Made by a program: the position numbers and the translations under genes. The notes under the pieces are model-generated. The model saw only the letters and a program-made list of their open reading frames with translations. It did no database searches and was not told the origin of the DNA. From contig CAVTXF010000002.1 of assembly GCA_963738595.1 (NCBI GenBank), positions 215,168 through 279,167 on the forward strand: a stretch of 64,000 nt of DNA. The letters run 5' to 3'. Every line of letters begins with the position of its first letter. The stretch's first letter is position 1. This document shows, piece by piece, positions 45,226-57,833 of this stretch. Origin of the DNA: an uncultured Alphaproteobacteria bacterium. GTDB taxonomy: Bacteria; Pseudomonadota; Alphaproteobacteria; Rhizobiales; Aestuariivirgaceae.

Positions 45226-46575
45226 TCAGTTCAAGGCCTGGATCAACGTCGGTGAACCCAGGCGTTCGGCAATTTTTTCGGGCGTGTCGCGGGATATGGT
45301 GCGTGACGTGGTCGAACCACCTGCGTCGACGACCAATTTTGCGATATCAGCCCGGTCGATCCGTACTGCCAGTGTAAGAACCGTGTCGCCATCAAGGTTT
45401 TTCTGATTGATGTCGGCGGCGAGCGGCAGGAGGAGCCTGACGGCTTCCAATCGGCCCCTTGCTGCAGCCAACATGAGCGGCGTGTTCCCGCTCTTGTCGA
45501 GGGCCTCCACCTCGACCGGTTTTTGCAGAAGGGCATTGATGATTTTTGTGTTGCCAGTGTTGGCTGCGACATGAAGCGGCGTGAAGCCTTCATTGTCCGA
45601 GGCTGTGAAAGCTCCGTCACGCTCCAACAGCATTTTGGCCAATGGCTCATTGCCGCTGGCAATGGCACGCCACAGGGGGGTGCGTCCGGCAGCGTCGGGG
45701 AACACTGCGTCCTCTTCCGAAACCAGGTTTCCTGGCACTTCAACTTCAGGGCAATTGCGCGCCAAGACATGGGCTGCCGTTTCGCCTGCATGGTTTGAGC
45801 GTGACTGGCGGAAATGCGATTCCGCCTCCTCAAGGGTTTGCAGATTGCACTGGCGGGCGGCCAGCAGATCGGCGGAGTTGCCGTGAGCCGTTTTCTGGTC
45901 AACGTTGGCGGCAGCGCCCACAAGAATTTTTGCGAGCGCGATGTTTCCGGTTTCAATGGCCCAGAGATAGGCCGACATGCCACCCTTGTCAGACAGGTTG
46001 ACGTTGGCCTTCAAGGCCAGCAATTGTTCCACCAGTTTTGTATTGCCGCTCCGGACCGCAACAATCAGAGGCGTTTGTCCTGCAGCATCGCGCGTATTGA
46101 TATCTGCTGGCGTGGCCGGTGTATCCACTTTTTCAAATGGACGGGCCACACTCAATATCAGCCAGTCCTGCTTTCCGGACGGTTGTGGCTTCAATTTGGC
46201 CAGAGATGCAATGCGCGGATTGCGCAAGGTTGTTGCATCAGGAACCGGAACAGCTTCAGTGGTGACAATGTTTGCAAGGCTGGTGAGCAATTTCCCCGCC
46301 TCGGCATTGCCTCCTGCGGCGGACTTTCGCAACCAGTCGCGGGCCCTTGCATCGTCGCGTCTGGTGCCGAGACCGCTTCGCAACATGACAGCCAGGCGAT
46401 ATTGCGACAGTGGATTTCCTGATCTTGCGGATTTGGTGAGCAGGGCAACGGCCTGCTTGTAGTGGCGGCCGAGGATGAGTTTCTGGTAGGCGTCATCCCT
46501 GGCGAGCGCTTGCGGCGCTGTCGCAAGAGCTACAATCAGACAGGCAGTGCCAAGGAAGGTTCTAAGCGGTGCCAT
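45226..46575 (-). CDS. Exported SEL1-repeat + ankyrin-repeat protein
   Basis: Signal ending PQALA-RDD; SEL1 repeat SQYRLAVMLRSGLGTRRDDARARDWLRKSA; about 8 ankyrin repeats (GQTPLIVAV, GRTPLWRAI, GFTPLHVAA, GNTPLMLAA, GDTVLTLAV). Confidence 0.88.
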   Translation of the reverse strand: MAPLRTFLGTACLIVALATAPQALARDDAYQKLILGRHYKQAVALLTKSARSGNPLSQYRLAVMLRSGLGTRRDDARARDWLRKSAAGGNAEAGKLLTSLANIVTTEAVPVPDATTLRNPRIASLAKLKPQPSGKQDWLILSVARPFEKVDTPATPADINTRDAAGQTPLIVAVRSGNTKLVEQLLALKANVNLSDKGGMSAYLWAIETGNIALAKILVGAAANVDQKTAHGNSADLLAARQCNLQTLEEAESHFRQSRSNHAGETAAHVLARNCPEVEVPGNLVSEEDAVFPDAAGRTPLWRAIASGNEPLAKMLLERDGAFTASDNEGFTPLHVAANTGNTKIINALLQKPVEVEALDKSGNTPLMLAAARGRLEAVRLLLPLAADINQKNLDGDTVLTLAVRIDRADIAKLVVDAGGSTTSRTISRDTPEKIAERLGSPTLIQALN

Positions 46576-47866
46576 ATTTTGTCACCATGTCGATGCCTGC
46601 CGATTTCAGGAATTCGGTGGGGAGAATTCCACCAGCACAGATGATCACGGCGTCATTTTCCATGCGGCCTTCCTTGCCATCGGATGCCAGGACCACGGCG
46701 TCACCGGTGATTTCCTTGACCACTGATTTGAACAAAAGAAGCAGTTTTCCGTCACGCGCCATCGCCGAAGCCTTGTCGCGATTTTTGGAGCGGGCCCTTC
46801 CGAATGCGTCGCCACGATAGGACAGGGTGACCGTGGTGCCGGGCTGTTCGGCTATGCTGGTTGCCGCTTCAAGGGCTGAATCACCACCACCCACAACAAG
46901 CACATGCTTGTTGCGATATTGCTCGGCATCGATGAACTGGTAGACGACTTTCGGCAGGTCCTCTCCTGGAACGCCAAGTTCGCGCGGTGTGCCACGGCGG
47001 CCGATGGCCAGAAGTACGGCGCGACACAGATTTTGTACGCTGCCGGTGTTGACGGAAAATCCGTCGCCGGATTTCGCTATGCTGCTCACCCGCTGGCGGT
47101 ATTTCACATTGAGTGAATGCTTGACTTCAATGTCCTTCCAGAATTCCAAAAGCTTTTCTTTCGAGACTTCCCGGAAATTCACTTTGCCGACAATCGGAAG
47201 AATTGCCGGTGCCGTCATGACGACCTTGCCACGGGGATACTTGAACACTGTGCCACCGAGATCATCCTGCTCGATGACAAGATAGGACAGGCTCTTTTGT
47301 TTTGCAGCAAGGGCTGCGGCAATGCCTGCCGGACCCGCGCCCACGATGATCAGGTCAAAGCGGCCCGGCTGGCCGAAGCCTGTCAGTTTGCTGATTGATT
47401 CAACTGCCTGCCTTCCTTGCTCGACGGCATTGCGGATCAGGCCCATGCCACCCAATTCCCCGGCGATGAAAATCCCCGGAACATTGGATTGAAAGTCCGG
47501 CTTGACGACTGGCAGGTCAATACCGCGCTGCGCGGTTCCAAAGACCAATGTTATCGCATCGGTCGGGCAGGCCGTCTTGCAGGCACCATGGCCAATGCAA
47601 TGGGTCGGCTCGATCAATTCCGCCTTGCCGTTGATGATGCCCAGGATGTCACCCTCAGGACAGGCCAGGGTGCAGGTCGCGCAGCCCAGGCAGGTGGCGG
47701 CATTGATAACAGGATGCAGCGAGGTTGGCTCCGACAGGCCCGCTTCAAAGGCTGCCGTCTTGATCGCAATCGCGCGTTTTTCGGAACGACGGCTGATCGT
47801 CAGATATATGGCCCAGATTGTGGCCATGATGATCAGATAGGGCGAGAAGAGTTTTATGGTTTCCAT
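46562..47866 (-). CDS. Membrane-anchored ferredoxin fused to a thioredoxin-reductase-fold (YpdA/FNR-like) FAD/NAD(P)H oxidoreductase
   Basis: N-terminal TM helix; CLGCATCTLACP and CIGHGACKTACP; PGIFIAGE; GAGPAG; LAIGRRG; GGGDSA; no CxxC. Confidence 0.85.
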   Translation of the reverse strand: METIKLFSPYLIIMATIWAIYLTISRRSEKRAIAIKTAAFEAGLSEPTSLHPVINAATCLGCATCTLACPEGDILGIINGKAELIEPTHCIGHGACKTACPTDAITLVFGTAQRGIDLPVVKPDFQSNVPGIFIAGELGGMGLIRNAVEQGRQAVESISKLTGFGQPGRFDLIIVGAGPAGIAAALAAKQKSLSYLVIEQDDLGGTVFKYPRGKVVMTAPAILPIVGKVNFREVSKEKLLEFWKDIEVKHSLNVKYRQRVSSIAKSGDGFSVNTGSVQNLCRAVLLAIGRRGTPRELGVPGEDLPKVVYQFIDAEQYRNKHVLVVGGGDSALEAATSIAEQPGTTVTLSYRGDAFGRARSKNRDKASAMARDGKLLLLFKSVVKEITGDAVVLASDGKEGRMENDAVIICAGGILPTEFLKSAGIDMVTKYGTA

Positions 47867-47881: not shown

Positions 47882-49084
47882 CTAGTTTTCCGATATTCCA
47901 AGTTCCGCGGCGCTGGCCTTGAGCTGCGCCTGGGTCGGTGCATCATCGGCAAATATCGTTAAGGCTTTGCTGAGTGCGGCACGGGCCTCTTCCTTCTGTT
48001 GCAGCACCATGCGCGAACGCATGAGTCTCACCCAGCCTTCGGCATCGCGGGGCGATGCATCGAGTTTTGCCGCAAGCCTGTCGACCATGGAGCGGATCAT
48101 TTCCTGCTGGTCGGCAGCGGGCATGGACTGGATTGCGGCAACATCGTCTTGCGAAATCTGCGGGGCCGCTGTCTTCATTTCCTGCGGTGGCTCTTTCAGC
48201 TGTTGTGACACGTCGCGGCCCAGCGCCTTGCCGAGATCGGCAATATGTGTGCGCACATCGGTCAGCCAGCCTTCGCCGTCTGGGGCATCGGCGAGAAGCG
48301 CCAGCCACTTGTCGAGAGAAGCTGCCTTGTCGCCCGCTTGCTCCAGTTGAAGTGCGTCATAGAAACGCGAGCGCGGATCCTTTGGTTGGCCTGCCAGCAC
48401 CTTTTTGAAGTTGGCAAGCGCTTCCGGGGTGACGATGCCTTGCGCCGCCTGAACCTGGGCTTCGGCGAGTGCCGACAGATAATCCAGATTGGCCGGGTCC
48501 AATGCAACTGCCTTGGCATAGGCTTCCATGGATTGCTGGTAGCGCTCAGTGTTGAAATAGGACCAGCCCAACATGCGCCAGCCCTCGGCATCGGCGGGAT
48601 TCTGTTTCAGGCGGTCTTCCAGCTTGGTGATCATGGCGTCAACCTGGCCCGTTGACGCGCCCATGCCGGGGGTTGCTGCGGGCTGGGCTATGGGCTGGGA
48701 TGCGACAGTGGGCCTGCTGTCAACAATTGGAACAAGCGTCGGGCTGCCGAGTTTCGCATAGAGAAAGACCGAGGCAAGCGCGACGAAGCCGGTTGTCGAG
48801 ATCAAGGCAAGGCCACGCCAAGCGGGCGAAAGTGGACGAGCCGTCGTGCTTTCTTTCAACGCCGCGATCATGCGGCGCTGGATTTCAATGCGGGCAGAGC
48901 TTGCTGCAGTTGCGTCAATCTGGCCGGACTGCAGGTCGCGATCGAGTTGCTCGAGCTGCAACTCGTAGATTGCCGATGTCCCTGCCTGCGGCGCATTGGC
49001 ATGTTCGAATTTGCGAATGAGCGGAATGCTCACTGCCACACAGGCAGCGCATGCCATGAGGGTCAGGATAATCCAGAGTGTCAT
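47882..49084 (-). CDS. ccmI: Cytochrome c maturation protein CcmI/CycH (TPR)
   Basis: Start reassigned to 49084; TM-IYELQL.QLDRD...ARIEIQRR-TM-Y..LGSP, NPADAEGW.MLG, DAEGWVRL.RS. Confidence 0.9.
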   Translation of the reverse strand: MTLWIILTLMACAACVAVSIPLIRKFEHANAPQAGTSAIYELQLEQLDRDLQSGQIDATAASSARIEIQRRMIAALKESTTARPLSPAWRGLALISTTGFVALASVFLYAKLGSPTLVPIVDSRPTVASQPIAQPAATPGMGASTGQVDAMITKLEDRLKQNPADAEGWRMLGWSYFNTERYQQSMEAYAKAVALDPANLDYLSALAEAQVQAAQGIVTPEALANFKKVLAGQPKDPRSRFYDALQLEQAGDKAASLDKWLALLADAPDGEGWLTDVRTHIADLGKALGRDVSQQLKEPPQEMKTAAPQISQDDVAAIQSMPAADQQEMIRSMVDRLAAKLDASPRDAEGWVRLMRSRMVLQQKEEARAALSKALTIFADDAPTQAQLKASAAELGISEN

Positions 49085-49563
49085 GTGTTCTTGCCCTTGA
49101 TTTCTTCCAGCAGTCTCGTTTCTTCCGGTGACAATGGTTCCGGTACGGCAGGCGAAGATGCCGACCTGCGGCGCATATAGACCAGGAAGACTGACAAAGC
49201 GCTGGCAAAAACCAGAAGCGGACCCAGCCACAGCAGTACGGTGCTTGGTTGCAGTGGCGGTTTCAACAGAACGTAGTTGCCAAACCTGTTGACGATGAAT
49301 TCCTGAACCTGCGCGTCAGTCTCGCCCAATTGCAGGCGCTCGCGCACGATCAGGCGCAGGTCGCGCGCGAGGCCGGCGTTGGAATCATCAATTGACTGGT
49401 TTTGGCAAACAAGGCAGCGCAGGTCGGCACTGATGGCGCGCGCGCGCGCTTCAAGCGCTGGGTCTTGCAGCATTTCCTGCGGCTCTACAGCCATGGCATG
49501 AACTGCCAGGTACATGAAGGAGAAGGCTGTGAAAAACAACCGTGTCATCATTGTCGCCTTCAT
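49081..49563 (-). CDS. ccmH: Cytochrome c maturation protein CcmH/CycL
   Basis: LRCLVCQNQSIDDSNA.LARDLR, RFGNYVLLKPP, LLWLGP; start 49563 (ATGA overlap) or 49551. Confidence 0.93.
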   Translation of the reverse strand: MKATMMTRLFFTAFSFMYLAVHAMAVEPQEMLQDPALEARARAISADLRCLVCQNQSIDDSNAGLARDLRLIVRERLQLGETDAQVQEFIVNRFGNYVLLKPPLQPSTVLLWLGPLLVFASALSVFLVYMRRRSASSPAVPEPLSPEETRLLEEIKGKNT

Positions 49564-51533
49564 GCCGCGGCACCTGCGAGCCTGACGCGATGCGGTGCGC
49601 CAATACGGAAACGCCGGTCGGTGAGCGAGACAAAGCCGCCCAACGCCATGGTGAAACCGCCGATCCACAGGAAGGGGGCGAGTGGGTGATAATAGAGGCG
49701 CACCGTCCACTTGCCCGACTGATCGGCCTCGCCAAGTGCAATGTAGAGATTCGAAATGATGTTGGTCCGGATTGCCGTTTGCGTTACCTGATTTTGCTGC
49801 AACGGGAAAAAGCGACGTTCTGCCACCATGGTGGCGAGCGACTTACCGTCGAGCGTCACATCGAAGGTTCCCTGCTCTGCTTCATAGTTGGGGCCATTGG
49901 CCTGGGTGATGCCCCGCAATGTGACCATGTAACCCGCAATCTCGGCTGTTTCGCCCGGGGCCATGGACAGAATGTTCTCGCGTTGCCAGGTTGATACAAC
50001 AGTAATTGCACCCACAAGGAGGCCAAGCCCGAGATGGGCGAGGACCATGCCAAAGACGCTGCGCGGTGTATTGGCGAGAAGGCTCACGGATGAATCAAGT
50101 GAAGTCTGGGCGAGCTTGATGCGGGTGAACAATGCCCAGACTGCGCCCAAGATGAGCCACAGCGACAGCGCGATACCGCCCGCGGTGAAGATGTAGGACA
50201 GGTGGCCGAATGCAAGGACCGCCAGAAATGCCGCCAGTGCAATCACCAAGGGTATGCGCAGCTTCTGCAACGCAGGCACCACTTCGTCGCGCTTCCATTT
50301 CAGCATCGGCCCAACTGACAATGTGAGCAGCAGCAGAATGAAGATCGGGACGAAGGTGCGATTGTAGAAGGGCGGGCCAACGGAGATCTTGTCGTTGCCC
50401 ATGAGGTCGATCAGCAAGGGATAGAATGTGCCGATGAAGACGGTTGCAGTTGCGGTCACAAGCAGCACATTGTTGAGGGACAATCCGCCTTCGCGGCTGA
50501 CGAGGGAGAATGGCACGCCGGATTTCACCTGCGGGATGCGCAAGGCATAGAGCAGCAATGCGCCGCCCGTTGCCACCGAGAGAATGGCGAGAATGAACAC
50601 GCCGCGTTCAGGGTCCTGGGCAAATGCATGGACACTTGTGAGGACGCCTGAGCGAACGACAAAGGTGCCGATGAGACTCAACGAGAATGTGAGAATGGCG
50701 AGCAGGATGGTCCAGCTCACCAGAGCGTGACGACGCTCGACCACGATGGCCGAGTGCAGCAGGGCCGTGCCTGCGAGCCATGGCATAAGCGACACGTTTT
50801 CAACCGGATCCCAGAACCACCAACCGCCCCAGCCAAGAATATAATAGGCCCAGAAGCTGCCGAGCGTGATGCCCATTGTGAGGAAACACCAGGCAGCCAG
50901 AACCCAGGGCCTGACCCAGCGGGCCCAAGCAGGATCCACTTTTCCCTCGATGAGAGCTGCTACCGCGAAAGAAAAGGTGACGGAAAATCCGACGTAACCG
51001 AGATAGAGACAGGGCGGGTGAATGGCGAGGCCCGGATCCTGCAAAAGCGGATTCATGCCATTGCCTTCAGCCGGTGCGAAGGCAAGGCGCGCAAAGGGAT
51101 TCGAAGTGAAAATGACAAAGGCCAAAAAAGCTGAGGCAATCATACCCTGCACTGCAAGGACACGCGCCTTCAACTGATGCGGAAGTGCTGATCCGAAAAC
51201 CGCGATGAGACATGAGAACAATGTCAACACCAGAACCCACAGCAACATCGAACCTTCATGGTTGGCCCAAACACCGGTAAATTTATAGACAAGTGGTTTG
51301 GTTGTCTGTGAATGAGTCGCAACCAAGGCCAGTGAAAAATCTGAGCTCACGAATCCTGCTGTCAGAAGTGCAAATGCGGCAGCGACGCACACAAAGGCCG
51401 CAATGGCGCCATAATTCCCTAACGCCATCAGGCTTTCATCGCGCCTGTTTGCGCCGATGATTGGTGCTACTGATTGCACCAAGCACACTGAAAAACCTAA
51501 CAAAAGCGCAAACAGTCCAAGCTCTGCAATCAT
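49560..51533 (-). CDS. ccmF: Cytochrome c heme lyase CcmF/CycK
   Basis: WANHEGSMLLW, NPLLQDPGLAIHPP, WWD motif WGGWWFWDPVEN.SLMPW, VRSGVLTSVHAFA, SVGPPFYN; start at ATG 51533. Confidence 0.97.
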   Translation of the reverse strand: MIAELGLFALLLGFSVCLVQSVAPIIGANRRDESLMALGNYGAIAAFVCVAAAFALLTAGFVSSDFSLALVATHSQTTKPLVYKFTGVWANHEGSMLLWVLVLTLFSCLIAVFGSALPHQLKARVLAVQGMIASAFLAFVIFTSNPFARLAFAPAEGNGMNPLLQDPGLAIHPPCLYLGYVGFSVTFSFAVAALIEGKVDPAWARWVRPWVLAAWCFLTMGITLGSFWAYYILGWGGWWFWDPVENVSLMPWLAGTALLHSAIVVERRHALVSWTILLAILTFSLSLIGTFVVRSGVLTSVHAFAQDPERGVFILAILSVATGGALLLYALRIPQVKSGVPFSLVSREGGLSLNNVLLVTATATVFIGTFYPLLIDLMGNDKISVGPPFYNRTFVPIFILLLLTLSVGPMLKWKRDEVVPALQKLRIPLVIALAAFLAVLAFGHLSYIFTAGGIALSLWLILGAVWALFTRIKLAQTSLDSSVSLLANTPRSVFGMVLAHLGLGLLVGAITVVSTWQRENILSMAPGETAEIAGYMVTLRGITQANGPNYEAEQGTFDVTLDGKSLATMVAERRFFPLQQNQVTQTAIRTNIISNLYIALGEADQSGKWTVRLYYHPLAPFLWIGGFTMALGGFVSLTDRRFRIGAPHRVRLAGAAA

Positions 51534-51706
51534 GTTTTTTCCATTCATCCCAGGTTATCAGGCTGCCACAAAATTGACTAAAGTTTTATCGGAGAAAAAG
51601 CAAAAAAACATCGATTTTCTCCACATTTGTTAGCTGATTGTCAGACTAAGGTATGTAAGGACGGCAGCAAGAAGAAAAGTTCCTTTTAACAGCCGGGGGC
51701 ATTCTG

Positions 51707-52687
51707 ATGAGTACTGCGTTATCGCGCAAGTCTGCGCGTGAACTTGTTGCATTTGATCCAGCCGTAAATCCGGCTTCACGACCGCCACAGCGCAGTGCAC
51801 CGCGTCCCGGCTCCAAGCCTGCGCATGTTGCTGCACCGTCTGCGCCGCGCGAAGGTCTTGGAACATATTTCATCCTTATCACATCGTTGCTGGCGATTGC
51901 CTATGGCTATTCGACACGCAATGCCGATGTGTTTGTTCCCTATGAAGGGGCCGGCTACTGGATTGGTGTTGCCGGCGGCAGCGGCATGCTGCTGCAGCTT
52001 GCCTATTCATCGGTCAAGCGGCTGAAATTTTTCCGGCGTCTTGCGGCTTCACGCATGCTCTTCCAGATGCATATGGTGCTCGGTCTCGCAGCACCCATCC
52101 TCATTCTCTATCACGCCAATTTTTCTTGGGGGGCAACGAACAGCAATGTGGCACTTGGCACCATGCTTGCCGTGGTTGCCAGCGGGCTGATTGGCCGCAT
52201 CGTTTACCGGCACATCCACTTTGGTCTGCACGGTGCCAAGGCCAACGCGAACCAGATGTTTGAACATGCCCGACACCTTTTGGGCGACATTGAAGAAGAT
52301 GTCGGCGGTTCGCAGGGTCAAATTGCGGCACGGCTTGCGAATTTCGCCGCGTTGCCGATCTTCCACGAGCGGTCATTGTCGCGGCAATTCGTTTCGGCGC
52401 TGGTCATACCTTTCAAAGTGCGGCTTGCCAGACTAAAGTTCAATTCAATGATTCGGCGAACCGTTGCTGAAAATGCGGTCAGAAACGGTTGGTCTAACGC
52501 AGAGCTGGCACGCCACAGGAAACAAGCACAACTGCATGTCAGGGATTTTCTCCAGTCTTTCAGCGCTGCCTCGCAGCTCGCCTTCTGGGAACGGTTGTTT
52601 TCAGTCTGGCACCTGCTGCATGTGCCCTTGTTCTACCTGCTGCTGGTCAGTGGCGTGGCTCACGTCATCGCAGTCCACTGGTACTGA
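51707..52687 (+). CDS. Inner-membrane bis-heme-b protein of the ferric-reductase-like transmembrane superfamily
   Basis: About 5 hydrophobic helices; two H-x13-H pairs (H-MVLGLAAPILILY-H and H-VPLFYLLLVSGVA-H); long helical soluble insert; first gene of the cytochrome operon. Confidence 0.72.
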   Translation: MSTALSRKSARELVAFDPAVNPASRPPQRSAPRPGSKPAHVAAPSAPREGLGTYFILITSLLAIAYGYSTRNADVFVPYEGAGYWIGVAGGSGMLLQLAYSSVKRLKFFRRLAASRMLFQMHMVLGLAAPILILYHANFSWGATNSNVALGTMLAVVASGLIGRIVYRHIHFGLHGAKANANQMFEHARHLLGDIEEDVGGSQGQIAARLANFAALPIFHERSLSRQFVSALVIPFKVRLARLKFNSMIRRTVAENAVRNGWSNAELARHRKQAQLHVRDFLQSFSAASQLAFWERLFSVWHLLHVPLFYLLLVSGVAHVIAVHWY

Positions 52688-52696
52688 GGATGTTCC

Positions 52697-54070
52697 GTGA
52701 TCAGGAGGCTGGCCCAATTCCAAATTGGCCTGGCCTTCCTGGTGGGTCTGGTGTTTCTTACAGGTCCCCTGTGGGCGCAAAACACAGTCGAAAACCTGGT
52801 TCAGCCTGACCTGCTGGCGACAGCACACAAGAAACTCGAAGAAGACTGCAGTACCTGCCACATGGCCTTCAAGAAGGCTGCGCAAAGCTCACTCTGTGCC
52901 GATTGCCACAAGCCGGTGAAACAAGACATTGCCAAGGGCGAGGGCTTCCACGGCAAGAATCCCCTGGTGAAAAAGTCCGAGTGTGCCAACTGTCACGCTG
53001 AACACAAGGGTCGCGACTTCAAACAGGACCGGTTCACCAGCATTACCTTCAACCATACTGAAACGGATTACCCGCTTGATGGCAAGCATGCCCAGGTGGA
53101 TTGCAATGGTTGCCATTTGCCGGGCAAGAAGTTCAGCGCAGCACCACATGCCTGTTTCGACTGTCACGAGAAGGACCAGCCACATCGCGGCAATCTGGGA
53201 AACAAGTGCGAGTCCTGCCACAACACCAAAGACTGGAAAAAGACCGCGATCTTTGACCACAGCAAGACAGACTTTCCGCTGAATGGCGCGCATGCCAAGG
53301 CGACATGCTTTGGTTGCCATGTCGGAGAAGTCTACAAGGGTGTCTCCAAAACATGTTTTGGCTGCCACGCGATGCAAGATGTGCATGATGCGCGGTTTGG
53401 CGAAAAATGTGAGAGCTGCCACACTGAAAAAGACTGGAAGCACAAGGCTTTTGATCATGGCAAGCTGACGCGCTTTGCCCTGACAGGGGCCCATGCCAAG
53501 GCCGCATGTGCCGACTGTCATGGCAAGAACCTCACATCAAAACTGCCGATGGGCTGCTTTGATTGCCACAAGAAGCAGGATGTCCACCTGGGCCAGCTTG
53601 GACAAAATTGCGAGAGCTGCCACAAGACTTCTGCCTGGCGGCAGGATGTGACATTCGACCATGCGCTCACGGCGTTTCCGCTGTCTGGTTTGCACGTCGC
53701 AGTGGCCTGCGAAAGTTGCCATGCGAGCCCAGCCTATAAAGATGCCAAGACAGATTGCTTCTCGTGCCACAAGAAGGACGACGTGCATGAAGGACGGCTC
53801 ACGGCAAAGTGTGAAAGTTGTCATTCGGCCTCCGGCTGGACAAAGGTTGCCTTCAACCACGATACCGGAACGAAATTCCCGCTGACGGGGGCGCACAAAA
53901 AGCTTGGTTGCCATGGCTGCCACAAAGAGAAAAACGTGGTTTCGGCCAGCCTTCCGGTTGCGTGTTATGCCTGCCACAAGGCCCAGGACATACATCGCGG
54001 GGCGTTTGGCCAGAACTGCGCCGAATGTCATTCAACGGTCAGTTTCAAAGGCGCAATTATCCGTAAATGA
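52697..54070 (+). CDS. Periplasmic multiheme cytochrome c, 18 CxxCH
   Basis: Hand count of 18 CxxCH; Sec signal ending PLWA-Q; GAGGA RBS, GTG start; five ~68-aa triheme repeats. Confidence 0.93.
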   Translation: MIRRLAQFQIGLAFLVGLVFLTGPLWAQNTVENLVQPDLLATAHKKLEEDCSTCHMAFKKAAQSSLCADCHKPVKQDIAKGEGFHGKNPLVKKSECANCHAEHKGRDFKQDRFTSITFNHTETDYPLDGKHAQVDCNGCHLPGKKFSAAPHACFDCHEKDQPHRGNLGNKCESCHNTKDWKKTAIFDHSKTDFPLNGAHAKATCFGCHVGEVYKGVSKTCFGCHAMQDVHDARFGEKCESCHTEKDWKHKAFDHGKLTRFALTGAHAKAACADCHGKNLTSKLPMGCFDCHKKQDVHLGQLGQNCESCHKTSAWRQDVTFDHALTAFPLSGLHVAVACESCHASPAYKDAKTDCFSCHKKDDVHEGRLTAKCESCHSASGWTKVAFNHDTGTKFPLTGAHKKLGCHGCHKEKNVVSASLPVACYACHKAQDIHRGAFGQNCAECHSTVSFKGAIIRK

Positions 54071-54211: not shown

Positions 54212-54268
54212 ATGCACAGAGGAAAAAGTCCAGTGGTGCCGTTGTCGGAAGAGTCGCTGCTTTCGTGA
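54212..54268 (+). other. Possible 18-codon upstream ORF (MHRGKSPVVPLSEESLLS) whose stop overlaps the GTG of the 17-heme gene
   Basis: Purine-rich GGAGAGGAAGG just before ATG 54212; TGA 54266-54268 overlaps GTG 54265-54267. Confidence 0.3.
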
Positions 54269-55632
54269 ATGGTGCGCTGTCATATTCCACAATCGCCAAT
54301 GCCGCCTTGCGTGGCATTGTGGCGTTGTTTGTGCTTCTCGTGCTGGCTTGCGGGTCTGCTTCCGCAGAAACAGTGATCGACAAGAATTTCGACCACTCCA
54401 GGACCAACTTTCCGCTGACCGGCAAGCATATCGATGTACGGTGCGAAACATGCCATGCGGGAGCCAAGTTCAAAGGTACTCCTACTGCCTGCTTTGCCTG
54501 CCATGACGGCAAGACAGCGTCGGGCAAGAGCCGCAATCATCCACCGACCACGAACCAGTGCCTGGACTGCCATGACACGGCACGCTGGAAAAATGTAAAG
54601 GTCGATCACAGCAAGATCTCGACCAACTGCTTCAGTTGCCATGACGGAAAGATTTCAACCGGCAAAAGCAAGACACATATTCGCAGCAGCGCAACATGCG
54701 AAGACTGCCACCAGGTGAGCACGTGGAGTGTCGCAAAATTTGACCATGCGATGACGACACTTCCCTGCGCCAGCTGCCACAATGGCGTGCAGGCCATCGG
54801 CAAGGGTCCGAAACATGTTCCTTCATCCAACAATTGCCTGTCCTGCCACACGACAGCGAAGTGGGAACTCAGCGGCTTTGATCATGCCGGCATTACCGGA
54901 TCGTGCTTTGGATGCCATAACGGGCGGGTCGCGACAGGCAAAACGCGCAATCATGTGAAGACCACCAATACCTGCGAAGACTGCCATTCGGTGCGGGTGT
55001 GGATTCCGACGACACGCTTTGACCATGCGTCAGCTCTCGGCAGCTGTGTGAGCTGCCACAGCGGCAAGGTGAAATCCTCTGAAGGGACGATCCAGGGAAA
55101 GTCGCGCAGCCACTTCAAGACAACCGATGCCTGTGAAACCTGTCATAGTGTGACAACCTGGACCACCTCGCGCTTTGACCATGCGGAAGCGCTGGGGACG
55201 TGTTTTTCGTGCCACGACAACCGGCATCCGCCAGCAGGTGGCAAGGGTCGCCGGCATTTTGCAACGTCGAATGCCTGCGAGGCCTGCCATGTTGTTTCAA
55301 CGTGGATCACTTCACGTTTCGATCACGCCGAGGCCAGCGGAACATGCTACTCGTGCCACGACAACAACCATCCGCCAGCCGGTGGCAAGGGCCGCAGGCA
55401 CTTTGCCACGTCGAATGTGTGCGAGGCCTGCCATGTCAATTCGACCTGGACGACCTCGCGCTTTGATCACGCGGAGTCGACCGGGACCTGCCTGTCGTGC
55501 CATGACAACCGGCATCCGCCAGCCACCGGAAAAGGGCGCAGGCACGTTGACACGGTGAAACCCTGCGATATATGCCACCTCAGCACTGCTGACTGGACGA
55601 TCCTCGATCCCAACTGGCCGCAGCTGCAATGA
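54265..55632 (+). CDS. Exported multiheme cytochrome c, 17 CxxCH, possibly a lipoprotein
   Basis: Hand count of 17 CxxCH; hydrophobic signal with VLAC (lipobox-like) and ASA-E (SPase I-like); one triheme plus seven diheme modules. Confidence 0.92.
   Translation: MNGALSYSTIANAALRGIVALFVLLVLACGSASAETVIDKNFDHSRTNFPLTGKHIDVRCETCHAGAKFKGTPTACFACHDGKTASGKSRNHPPTTNQCLDCHDTARWKNVKVDHSKISTNCFSCHDGKISTGKSKTHIRSSATCEDCHQVSTWSVAKFDHAMTTLPCASCHNGVQAIGKGPKHVPSSNNCLSCHTTAKWELSGFDHAGITGSCFGCHNGRVATGKTRNHVKTTNTCEDCHSVRVWIPTTRFDHASALGSCVSCHSGKVKSSEGTIQGKSRSHFKTTDACETCHSVTTWTTSRFDHAEALGTCFSCHDNRHPPAGGKGRRHFATSNACEACHVVSTWITSRFDHAEASGTCYSCHDNNHPPAGGKGRRHFATSNVCEACHVNSTWTTSRFDHAESTGTCLSCHDNRHPPATGKGRRHVDTVKPCDICHLSTADWTILDPNWPQLQ
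55170..55600 (+). repeat. Three tandem 144-nt (48-aa) diheme repeats within the 17-heme gene
   Basis: GCCA(C/T)GACAA recurs at 55211, 55355 and 55499; unit FDHAE..GTC.SCHDN.HPPA.GKGRRHF.TS..CEACH...W.TSR. Confidence 0.88.
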
Positions 55633-57833
55633 AGTATCGCGCATTCAAACAGTTGCACGGATTCAGCGCCAGCGTGATCGCATGCACGGTCGCCGCTTCG
55701 AGCCAGACCAGTATCGCGCAATCCGTGCCCCAGAAACTGATGACGTCCCTGCAAGTGACCGAAGATGGAAATTGCGAGCAAATTCACCTTCGGCTGAATG
55801 AAGCGGCGAACTTTGCCGGAGCGACACAAAGCGGAACGTCGGCCATCGTCGAAATTCCCATCGAGATCCTCGCGGGTGATACTCCGACACTGCCGACGGC
55901 AGAAATTCTGCCCGTCCCGGCCGACAATGCGGCTGGTGTGAAGACAATCGGATTTTTGCGAAATGCCGGGCAAACGCCCGCGATTGCCATCCGGTTTAAC
56001 GCAGCCGTCAACTATCGCATCATCATGGACGCTGAAACGCGCCATATCAGGGTTGATGTATCCAAGTCCGGCAGCACAGCGGCCTGCAACACAGGCCAGG
56101 CTGCAGTCGGCAGCATCACGCAACAGCCGCCAGCAGGGCCACTGGCACAAGCCAGTACCGCGATTGCGGCGGGACTCCATGAAGAGGCGCTGAAACTTCT
56201 GGCTCCCCTCATCGTGTCACTTGCCGGAAACGACAAGCAGAAGGCGATGGAACTCAATGGTCTGGCACTTGAGCGTCTCGGTCGGCTTGATGATGCCAAG
56301 TTGCAGTATGAAGCAACTCTCGCGCTTTTTCCCTCCCATGAAAGCAGCGGTCGCATCCGGCAACGCCTCGCTGATGTCGTTGATGCGCTGAACGCAGCAG
56401 CAATTGATGATGCAGCCAAGGGCGACCTGCCGCGCGAACTGCAGGGCGGTGACAAGGCCAACGAGAGTCTTGCCGACAACAGCGGGGCGCTGCGGGGGAC
56501 AATTGCACCCGAGAGCACGTTGCGCAGCATGCGCAAGATCAAGGACCCGGTTGTTGATCCTGACGCCTGGACCTGGACCAAATATGGCCTGGCCGGACAA
56601 GCCTATTACCGTGACGACCAGTTGGGTGATGACCATGAGCTTGTTGAAAGCGAAGTGATCAGCAATGTCAGCGTTGCCTTCAAGGGTGAAAACCAAAAAC
56701 GTGTTGTTTCCCTGCGGGTGGATGCGCTGAACCGGCAAGACCTTGGCATCAATGGCAACGAACGCAAGAACAGTGTCGCGACGTTCTATGCCGACGTTCT
56801 CGACAAGCCTTCCGGTGCTTCGGCGCGCATCGGCCGGCAGGTGCGCAATGATGGTGGCATCTTCGGGCGGTTCGACGGCGTTTCGATGACGTACAAAGCG
56901 AACAAGGCCCTTGACCTGTTGATTGCCGCAGGTTCGCCGGTTTATGACCGTGGCGCGCTTCCCTTTGAAGATGAGATGTATTTTTTCAGCGCCAGCGGGG
57001 TTTATGAATTCCCGGACAGCCCGTGGAGCAGCGAAGTCTACGTGATCGAGCAACGGGCTGGCAGCATCGTTGACCGGCGGGCGATTGGCAGCGAACTGAG
57101 ATATGAAACCGATGACCTTTCGGGCTACACGGGCATTGATTTTGATTTCAACCAGAACAAGGTCAGCAGCGCATTCATTTCAGCAAACTGGCAAGCGAAT
57201 GACCGGCTGGCGCTGAACGCGTCCCTGGACTTCCGGACGCAGCCATTCTTGCTGACATCCAACGCGCTCTCAGGGCAAGAACTGGACAGGCTGCCGAGCC
57301 TGGTCAACCTGCTTGGTGAAAAGCAGGTGCTGATCCTGGCCAAAGACCGGACCGCTGACGCGGTGACGGCAGCACTTGGCATCAGTTATACATTCTCTGA
57401 CACATGGCAAATGTCATTCGATGCCTTGTGGTCAGATGTGTCGGGGATGCCAGCTTCCGGCGGCATTGATGAAATCCCCGAACTTGCCAATGACATTTAT
57501 GTGGGGGCCTATCTCAATGGTACCAGCATTCTCAAGACTGGCGATACATTGGGACTTGGCCTGACCTACAGTCATGGTGAAAGGCGCTCGAAGATCGGCG
57601 CTGACATTTCCTGGCGCTTCCCGGTTGACGAGGCATTGCGCCTTACCACGCGGCTCAGGACCACTGTGACCACGCGCAACGGGGACGCCATCTACAGCAT
57701 CACGCCCAGCATTGGTGCGCGTTACCGGATCGACAAGCACTGGCTGCTGGAGTCGGAGCTTGGAGTGACCCTGCAAAACGGCGAAATGCCTGCAGAACTG
57801 CAGGCATTTGCCGGATACAGATATGAATTCTGA
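55629..57833 (+). CDS. Outer-membrane beta-barrel protein with an N-terminal periplasmic beta domain and TPRs (putative cytochrome-associated porin)
   Basis: ATGA overlap with the 17-heme gene; TPR (KAMELNGLALERLGRLDDAKLQYEATL); ~420-aa C-terminal region of alternating amphipathic strands ending AGYRYEF (terminal-Phe BAM signature). Confidence 0.8.
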   Translation: MKYRAFKQLHGFSASVIACTVAASSQTSIAQSVPQKLMTSLQVTEDGNCEQIHLRLNEAANFAGATQSGTSAIVEIPIEILAGDTPTLPTAEILPVPADNAAGVKTIGFLRNAGQTPAIAIRFNAAVNYRIIMDAETRHIRVDVSKSGSTAACNTGQAAVGSITQQPPAGPLAQASTAIAAGLHEEALKLLAPLIVSLAGNDKQKAMELNGLALERLGRLDDAKLQYEATLALFPSHESSGRIRQRLADVVDALNAAAIDDAAKGDLPRELQGGDKANESLADNSGALRGTIAPESTLRSMRKIKDPVVDPDAWTWTKYGLAGQAYYRDDQLGDDHELVESEVISNVSVAFKGENQKRVVSLRVDALNRQDLGINGNERKNSVATFYADVLDKPSGASARIGRQVRNDGGIFGRFDGVSMTYKANKALDLLIAAGSPVYDRGALPFEDEMYFFSASGVYEFPDSPWSSEVYVIEQRAGSIVDRRAIGSELRYETDDLSGYTGIDFDFNQNKVSSAFISANWQANDRLALNASLDFRTQPFLLTSNALSGQELDRLPSLVNLLGEKQVLILAKDRTADAVTAALGISYTFSDTWQMSFDALWSDVSGMPASGGIDEIPELANDIYVGAYLNGTSILKTGDTLGLGLTYSHGERRSKIGADISWRFPVDEALRLTTRLRTTVTTRNGDAIYSITPSIGARYRIDKHWLLESELGVTLQNGEMPAELQAFAGYRYEF

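Follow-up and report, generated by a model that had tools for sequence, protein, structure and literature searches.

A PCC3-type inner-membrane protein carrying two conserved histidine pairs and a candidate flavoprotein partner in an alphaproteobacterial porin-cytochrome cluster

The porin-cytochrome clusters known as PCC3 contain an inner-membrane protein (IMP) that is conserved (He, Barco, Emerson & Roden 2017, Front Microbiol 8:1584; PMC5566968). A protein of this type is encoded by the open reading frame at 51707..52687 (forward strand) of the window analysed here, a stretch of 64,000 nucleotides from an uncultured alphaproteobacterium of the Aestuariivirgaceae (contig CAVTXF010000002.1, positions 215,168 to 279,167); the assignment was reached by matching it feature by feature to the published description and not by sequence. 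The frame is open throughout and specifies 326 amino acids (aa) with five transmembrane (TM) helices, a candidate carrier of two b-type haems. In our reading, to which we give a probability of roughly 0.55, this IMP is the inner-membrane subunit of PCC3, holds two haems and is fed by a membrane-anchored ferredoxin-flavoprotein encoded nearby (46562..47866, reverse strand), and the two would work as a NOX-like two-component oxidoreductase that exports electrons while bypassing quinones. The core idea of a di-haem link in the inner membrane is already in print as a prediction (PMC5566968). Taken alone, the IMP gene adds little to that 2017 prediction, and the value of the present analysis lies in the comparative evidence for a flavoprotein partner.

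In the pathway that we infer, which takes in haem binding, ligand pairing, the flavoprotein contact, NAD(P)H as the electron source and flow towards the outside, electrons would enter in the cytoplasm, moving from NAD(P)H to the FAD of the flavoprotein and on to its two Fe-S clusters (2x[4Fe-4S]/FAD). The IMP would most likely hold two bis-histidine b-type haems, one on the cytoplasmic side between H122 and H305 and one on the periplasmic side between H136 and H319, and electrons from the Fe-S clusters would cross the membrane through them in that order. Beyond the IMP they would pass to an 18-haem cytochrome, then to a 17-haem lipoprotein cytochrome at the porin, and finally to an external acceptor. 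A long insert between TM4 and TM5 of the IMP, at the position of the 'D-loop' of NOX enzymes, would be the likely contact surface for the flavoprotein.

The architecture of the protein is consistent with such a role. Five membrane helices, at residues ~49-69, 81-105, 116-136, 144-168 and 296-325, are indicated by hydropathy and by an AlphaFold2 model alike. The model, built on 93 homologs, is confident and all-helical (mean pLDDT 85.6, pTM 0.75), and its helices run from 49-69, 81-105, 116-136, 144-175 and 264-325. TM3 (residues 116-136; 52052..52114), a single helix in the model, carries the first HX13H pair, H122/H136. TM5 (residues 296-326; 52592..52684) contains W301, H302, H305, H319 and H324, with a WX3H element placed before the second HX13H pair, H305/H319, and in each pair 13 residues lie between the two histidines. 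TM4 (residues 147-168; 52145..52210) carries S159-G160-x-x-G163-R164, which contains the SGXXG motif of He et al. A first-pass annotation of this DNA had placed histidine pairs 13 residues apart on two membrane-type helices, and sequence, hydropathy and the model all bear this out. It had also placed a helical soluble insert of ~110 residues between these two helices; a helical segment is indeed present, and it measures 127 residues (169-295; 52211..52591), while TM4 too separates the histidine-bearing helices. In the AlphaFold2 model the insert is made of helices at 181-199, 205-214 and 224-260 together with cytoplasmic extensions of TM4 and TM5, and its length in homologs ranges from 109 to 131 residues (median 127).

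The orientation of the IMP can be predicted from its charges. The insert contains 16 lysines and arginines, the N-terminal tail 8 and the loop between TM2 and TM3 5, as opposed to 0-1 in the pair of short loops on the periplasmic side. Because this distribution follows the positive-inside pattern, the protein is predicted to have its N-terminus inside and its C-terminus outside, with a cytoplasmic insert and with TM3 and TM5 running parallel. This would set H122 and H305 close to the cytoplasmic face, with H136 and H319 towards the periplasmic one. The N-terminal tail is rich in proline and alanine, which together fill 16 of the 32 positions from residue 17 to 48, and no dehydrogenase domain is present, as the first-pass annotation had noted; the protein has no match in Pfam (E<=0.1), in NCBIfam or among PDB sequences.

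The protein had been called an orphan, a description that the present searches overturn. A word-indexed search returned 125 relatives and an exhaustive one returned 1494 cluster representatives at E<=0.001, quite apart from the agreement with the published PCC3 IMP. Residue conservation was counted in an alignment of 93 homologs reaching down to ~25% identity, in which H122 and H136 are kept in 93/93 and H305 and H319 in 92/93. Further conserved positions are W301 (92/93), H302 (90/93), H171 (84/93) and H324 (83/93), and S159, G160, G163 and R164 of TM4 are found in every homolog. Other histidines vary: H169 is shared by 20/93, and the column of H190 is led by arginine (22/93). Since the four membrane histidines are nearly invariant while other histidines of the same protein drift, the alignment makes a clear case that selection acts on these four, in a pattern that exceeds chance. 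The first-pass annotation had named their loss in homologs as grounds for giving up its reading, and the histidines are retained in 92-93 of 93. By the logic of the motif, the protein probably binds haem.

Conservation is unevenly spread along the chain. The mean frequency of the most common residue is 0.66-0.72 for TM2-TM5 and reaches its highest value, 0.79, in the periplasmic loop between TM3 and TM4; in the insert it is 0.39, so that this segment is conserved in length and poorly so in sequence.

In its published description the PCC3 IMP has ~300 aa and five TM helices; TM4 bears SGXXG, and WX3HX13H occurs twice, on TM3 and on TM5. It was proposed to bind two b-type haems in the manner of a ferric-reductase domain or a cytochrome b and to be linked to the quinone pool, and its gene stands together with those for a porin and for two multihaem cytochromes, one periplasmic and one extracellular (PMC5566968). 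The protein of the window agrees in its size, its five helices, the SGXXG motif on TM4 and its cytochrome and porin-like neighbours. The WX3HX13H motif is complete on TM5 (W301, H305, H319), and TM3 has HX13H with leucine in place of the tryptophan, a position filled by tryptophan in 76/93 homologs.

The IMP gene heads an operon with two multihaem cytochrome genes and a porin-like gene, all on the forward strand. Nine nucleotides (nt) after its stop codon begins the gene for a periplasmic cytochrome c of 457 aa with a signal peptide and 18 CXXCH motifs (52697..54070). It is followed by a second multihaem cytochrome c of 455 aa with 17 CXXCH motifs and a lipobox-like signal (VLAC), a candidate surface or extracellular protein (54265..55632), and, with a 4-nt overlap, by a porin-like outer-membrane protein of 734 aa with weak N-terminal TPR matches (55629..57833). 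A scan of the operon for promoters and terminators found no more sites than in shuffled sequence.

The window proteins were used to search related loci in named genome assemblies, namely the best 80 of 258, with flanks of at most 10 kb. These belong to Alpha- and Gammaproteobacteria, Nitrospinaceae, Thermodesulfobacteriota and others, with Paraglaciecola and Thalassolituus among the carriers, and none of them is labelled Gallionellaceae. In 77/80 loci the IMP is directly followed by a homolog of the 18-haem cytochrome, and a homolog of the second cytochrome is found in 75/80; the same order of IMP and cytochrome genes recurs in 75-77 of the 80. The porin-like homolog is present in 56/80, a count to be read with the fact that contig ends truncate many loci.

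The evidence that sets the present reading apart concerns the ferredoxin-flavoprotein. This protein of 434 aa (Pfam Fer4_10 and Pyr_redox_3) begins with a TM helix followed by basic residues, and its Fe-S and FAD domains should therefore face the cytoplasm. Two cluster motifs are present, CxxCxxCxxxCP and CxxHxxCxxxCP, with ligands invariant in 61 orthologs, together with an FAD/NAD(P)H domain of the thioredoxin-reductase (TrxR) fold, that is, a two-dinucleotide fold, without a redox CxxC. Its closest solved relatives are YpdA/Bdr, TrxR and the TrxR-type ferredoxin-NAD(P)+ reductases (FNR). In the second Fe-S motif, C90, H93, C96 and C100, together with H51, are invariant in the same 61 orthologs. 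This pattern suggests a histidine-ligated or otherwise unusual cluster at what is likely the point where electrons leave the flavoprotein.

Orthologs of the flavoprotein lie near the IMP in 68/80 loci, and in 38/40 of those loci in which both flanks reach at least 9 kb. They are better conserved than the IMP itself (53-70% identical, against 31-47%), and their genes usually diverge from the IMP gene, with a median of 1.4 kb between the two. Co-occurrence was assessed separately, so as not to rely on best hits alone, in 401 evenly drawn genomes of the phylum, with cut-offs of at least 240 bits for a full-length IMP and E<=1e-60 for the flavoprotein. The long-insert IMP and the flavoprotein were found in exactly the same 5 of the 401 genomes, which represent four families, with one copy of the flavoprotein in each. 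The proposal that the missing dehydrogenase is supplied in trans by 46562-47866 thus gains comparative support from both synteny and co-occurrence.

The same sample of genomes contains a second form of the family. Some 22 of the 401 genomes have only short IMP relatives of 188-252 aa, and no flavoprotein ortholog. These proteins keep both HX13H pairs and the SGxxGR motif and have a short linker between TM4 and TM5 in which the long insert is absent; they match the long IMP only over TM1-TM4 and TM5 (44-72 bits) and give only sub-threshold Pfam matches, to PF01292 (Ni_hydr_CYTB) and DUF4405. In five of the six loci examined they adjoin cytochromes with 6-10 haems (L088-L092 and L097; G034, G102, G281, G241, G042, G349). 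One 343-aa variant (L091) follows a 537-aa Fe-S protein. Because the genomes with insert-less relatives have no flavoprotein ortholog, the long insert and the flavoprotein appear to come together, and no stronger argument is at hand for the view that the insert may serve the flavoprotein.

The short relatives can also be turned to the opposite account, since members of the family that stand beside 6-10-haem cytochromes in genomes with no ortholog of this flavoprotein must have another donor or acceptor. In the model published for PCC3, the IMP is a quinone-linked cytochrome b that connects the periplasmic cytochrome with the quinone pool for electron exchange, for instance in Fe(II) oxidation or in a CymA-like oxidation of quinol, and the flavoprotein would be an accessory enzyme with some other task. 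He et al. proposed it on the same motifs (PMC5566968), and the PCC3 IMP gene was up-regulated in iron-oxidising cells of Sideroxydans CL21 (10.1101/2025.02.27.639646). The most conserved segment of the IMP, the TM3-TM4 periplasmic loop, could line a quinone site, and the HX13HX4H of TM5 resembles helix D of cytochrome b. We nevertheless regard a quinone link as rather unlikely, though as a rival of some substance. It leaves unexplained why the flavoprotein occurs in the same five genomes and sits beside the IMP in nearly all loci with full flanks, and a quinol oxidase working from the periplasmic side needs neither a haem on the cytoplasmic side nor an insert of 127 residues. There is, moreover, no detectable homology of the IMP to known quinone-reactive cytochromes b, and, to judge by their names, many of the carriers seem to be heterotrophs, aerobic or from sediments, and not known iron oxidisers.

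The first-pass annotation had proposed looking for natural fusions of the two proteins. No genuine one emerged from three lines of search. Among the 150 IMP homologs listed, the ten long ones (449-687 aa) carry only low-complexity, TPR or SPOR additions, and the top 120 flavoprotein homologs are all of ordinary length (407-454 aa). When IMP domains were sought by a length-shifted search among proteins of 373-1188 aa, a single candidate came up, the 863-aa protein P0397 of a public metagenome (L128:1401-3992), an apparent ferredoxin-flavoprotein-IMP fusion that was rejected as a frameshift or gene-calling artefact. Its contig has 71% G+C and a name that indicates ~2x coverage; frame 3 is open throughout, and the segments that truly encode the IMP and the flavoprotein switch back and forth between frame 3 and frame 1. 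The IMP in this region ends at its own stop codon, so that the case shows adjacency on the same strand and not fusion. Two IMP homologs, P0071 and P0093 (312 and 380 aa), bear the NCBI name 'pyridine nucleotide-disulfide oxidoreductase', a domain that the family does not contain; the label was probably carried over from a neighbouring gene or from a mis-called fusion.

A further gene and a gene set accompany the pair in this window. The gene, which lies downstream of that for the flavoprotein with an overlap of 14 nt, encodes an exported protein of 449 aa with Sel1 and ankyrin repeats (45226..46575, reverse strand; Pfam Ank and Sel1), and 56/80 loci have a homolog of it close to the cluster. 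The set, ccmF-ccmH-ccmI for haem ligation (47882..51548, reverse strand; Pfam CcmF_C, Cytochrom_C_asm, CcmH and TPR_CcmH_CycH), fills the space that separates the flavoprotein gene from the divergent IMP operon. CcmF occupies this place in only 11/80 loci, mostly in close alphaproteobacterial relatives, and the set beside PCC3 looks like a lineage-specific addition rather than a core part.

The presence of ccmFHI next to the IMP gene invites a different account, in which the IMP is no electron carrier at all; its membrane histidines would bind some other metal or take charge of haem on its way elsewhere, and the protein would assist the assembly of the two haem-rich cytochromes. CcmF and CcsBA, which handle haem, also use conserved membrane histidines, and the IMP is without detectable homology to electron-carrying cytochromes b. 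Such a function seems very improbable indeed, as the ccm genes accompany so few of the clusters and the IMP has neither a WWD-type haem-handling motif nor a match to Pfam Cytochrom_C_asm. Two HX13H pairs set two by two on parallel helices have the geometry of haems stacked across a membrane, and an assembly factor would leave no role for an NAD(P)H flavoprotein partner.

The direction of flow must be weighed as well. Electrons from the surface could instead run inward through the IMP to the flavoprotein, which would pass them to NAD(P)+ or to an acceptor of the ferredoxin type. In principle, both haem wires and TrxR-type FNR enzymes can work in either direction, and PCC3 was first found in Fe(II) oxidisers, where it was discussed as a route of electron uptake. 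On bioenergetic grounds, however, inward electrons would have to move against the membrane potential, and the potentials of Fe(II) couples lie far above those of NAD(P)+ or ferredoxin. Because inward transfer runs against the potential and, from Fe(II), against the redox gradient as well, and the cluster encodes no coupling-ion machinery, outward flow is favoured and we consider the reverse direction quite improbable.

Returning to electron export by an IMP and flavoprotein pair, several observations weigh against it. Two of the 40 loci with full flanks have no flavoprotein nearby, and among the sampled genomes the flavoprotein is on another contig in one and ~15 kb from the IMP in another. 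The short relatives work without this flavoprotein, and the core function of the family therefore does not need it. No true fusion of IMP and flavoprotein was seen among the homologs searched, and no homology of the IMP to a haem b family was found by Pfam, hhalign or Foldseek. A mean conservation of 0.39 in the insert is unexpected for a surface on which a partner conserved at 53-70% would dock. H324, the last histidine of the HX13HX4H, is a weak hint of a quinone site.

The choice between these accounts matters beyond a single locus. PCC3 clusters are widespread in Proteobacteria of soil, sediment and sea and beyond, and their genes serve as candidate markers of iron oxidation. The PCC3 IMP was also used by Hoover et al. 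2023 (PMC9900912), and later papers still treat it as unverified. If the IMP is fed by an NAD(P)H flavoprotein and not by quinones, both the presumed direction and the physiological meaning of PCC3 change. Extended to the whole class, the proposal would be that long-insert IMPs and the flavoprotein form a NOX-like enzyme that passes NAD(P)H electrons through two haems and a wire of ~35 haems, bypassing quinones, and that PCC3 is a system of electron export. In this general form the odds fall a little below even. Were it true, it would be the first Gram-negative trans-envelope pathway from NAD(P)H to an extracellular acceptor that bypasses the quinone pool, and the uses of PCC3 may include metal or humic reduction, iron acquisition, redox balancing and the formation of extracellular superoxide.

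Set beside PCC3 as described by He et al., the cluster of the window has the order IMP, periplasmic cytochrome, surface cytochrome and porin, and its haem counts (18 and 17) sit at the low end of the published ranges. The published model has a quinone link and makes no mention of the two genes, for the flavoprotein and the ankyrin protein, whose place next to the IMP is conserved here. Nor did a conserved flavoprotein partner turn up in the literature searched. Supplementary Table 6 of He et al. 2017 (PMC5566968) also lists the IMPs of PCC4 and of porin-less clusters, the latter consisting of a multihaem cytochrome c, a five-TM protein with two HX13H motifs and a redox protein. These IMPs share the plan of five helices and two HX13H motifs beside multihaem cytochromes, often with a cytoplasmic redox protein, but the long cytoplasmic insert is absent or different. 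The short relatives found here are of this kind.

Comparison with the cytochrome b of bc1 complexes (PF00033) gives a mixed picture. Both proteins have HX13H on two helices, and the H-X13-H-X4-H of IMP TM5 (residues 305-324) matches in spacing helix D of the cytochrome b that this genome itself encodes (L086), a likeness of motif only. In cytochromes b, the last histidine of this helix lines the Qi quinone site. The histidine helices of cytochrome b, however, are the second and the fourth and run the opposite way to those of the IMP, and the PCC3 IMP has no Rieske or cytochrome c1 partners. When the profile of the IMP family was compared by hhalign with the MsrQ-like protein, the cytochrome b and the cytochrome b561 of this genome, no probability reached 1% (0.2% for cytochrome b and 0.5% for cytochrome b561), and an alignment of 24 MsrQ and ferric-reductase-domain sequences from sampled Alphaproteobacteria gave 0.3%.

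Membership of the ferric-reductase family, to which the first-pass annotation had likened the protein, was not established. PF01794, PF00033 and PF01292 do not match the IMP in a protein scan, and six-frame genome scans match other genes only. A Foldseek search of the model against the PDB found no NOX, MsrQ, cytochrome b or haem protein (best E 0.3, TM-score <=0.27); its matches to chemoreceptor sensor domains, ABC exporters and BAR domains (E>=0.3) were rejected as long-helix look-alikes. The IMP has five helices and not the six of NOX, STEAP or MsrQ-type structures; the long insert may mask a partial match of folds, so that a remote kinship may still exist. What stands is an analogy of motif and topology, and 'NOX-like' may describe a mode of working and not descent. 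The bis-haem transmembrane design that the first-pass annotation had proposed keeps its two invariant HX13H pairs on parallel helices and loses the support of detectable homology to a haem b family.

As an analogy, the comparison is instructive. In NOX enzymes, ferric reductases and MsrQ, histidine pairs on the third and fifth helices run from the cytoplasm to the outside and hold two haems stacked across the membrane. Their electron donor is a cytoplasmic NAD(P)H flavoenzyme, which is fused in NOX and separate in the E. coli pair of MsrQ and Fre, and in NOX the TM4-TM5 loop, or 'D-loop', contacts the dehydrogenase domain. The IMP likewise has its pairs on the third and fifth helices, both directed outward, and a TM4-TM5 loop predicted to be cytoplasmic. 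It differs in the spacing on TM5, which is HX13H against the HX12H of NOX and MsrQ, and in the 127-residue insert that it carries in this loop. The putative partner differs too, with two Fe-S clusters and a flavin domain of the TrxR fold in place of an FNR-type domain. So does the acceptor: where NOX, ferric reductases and MsrQ deliver their electrons to O2, Fe(III) or MsrP, the IMP would hand them to a wire of multihaem cytochromes.

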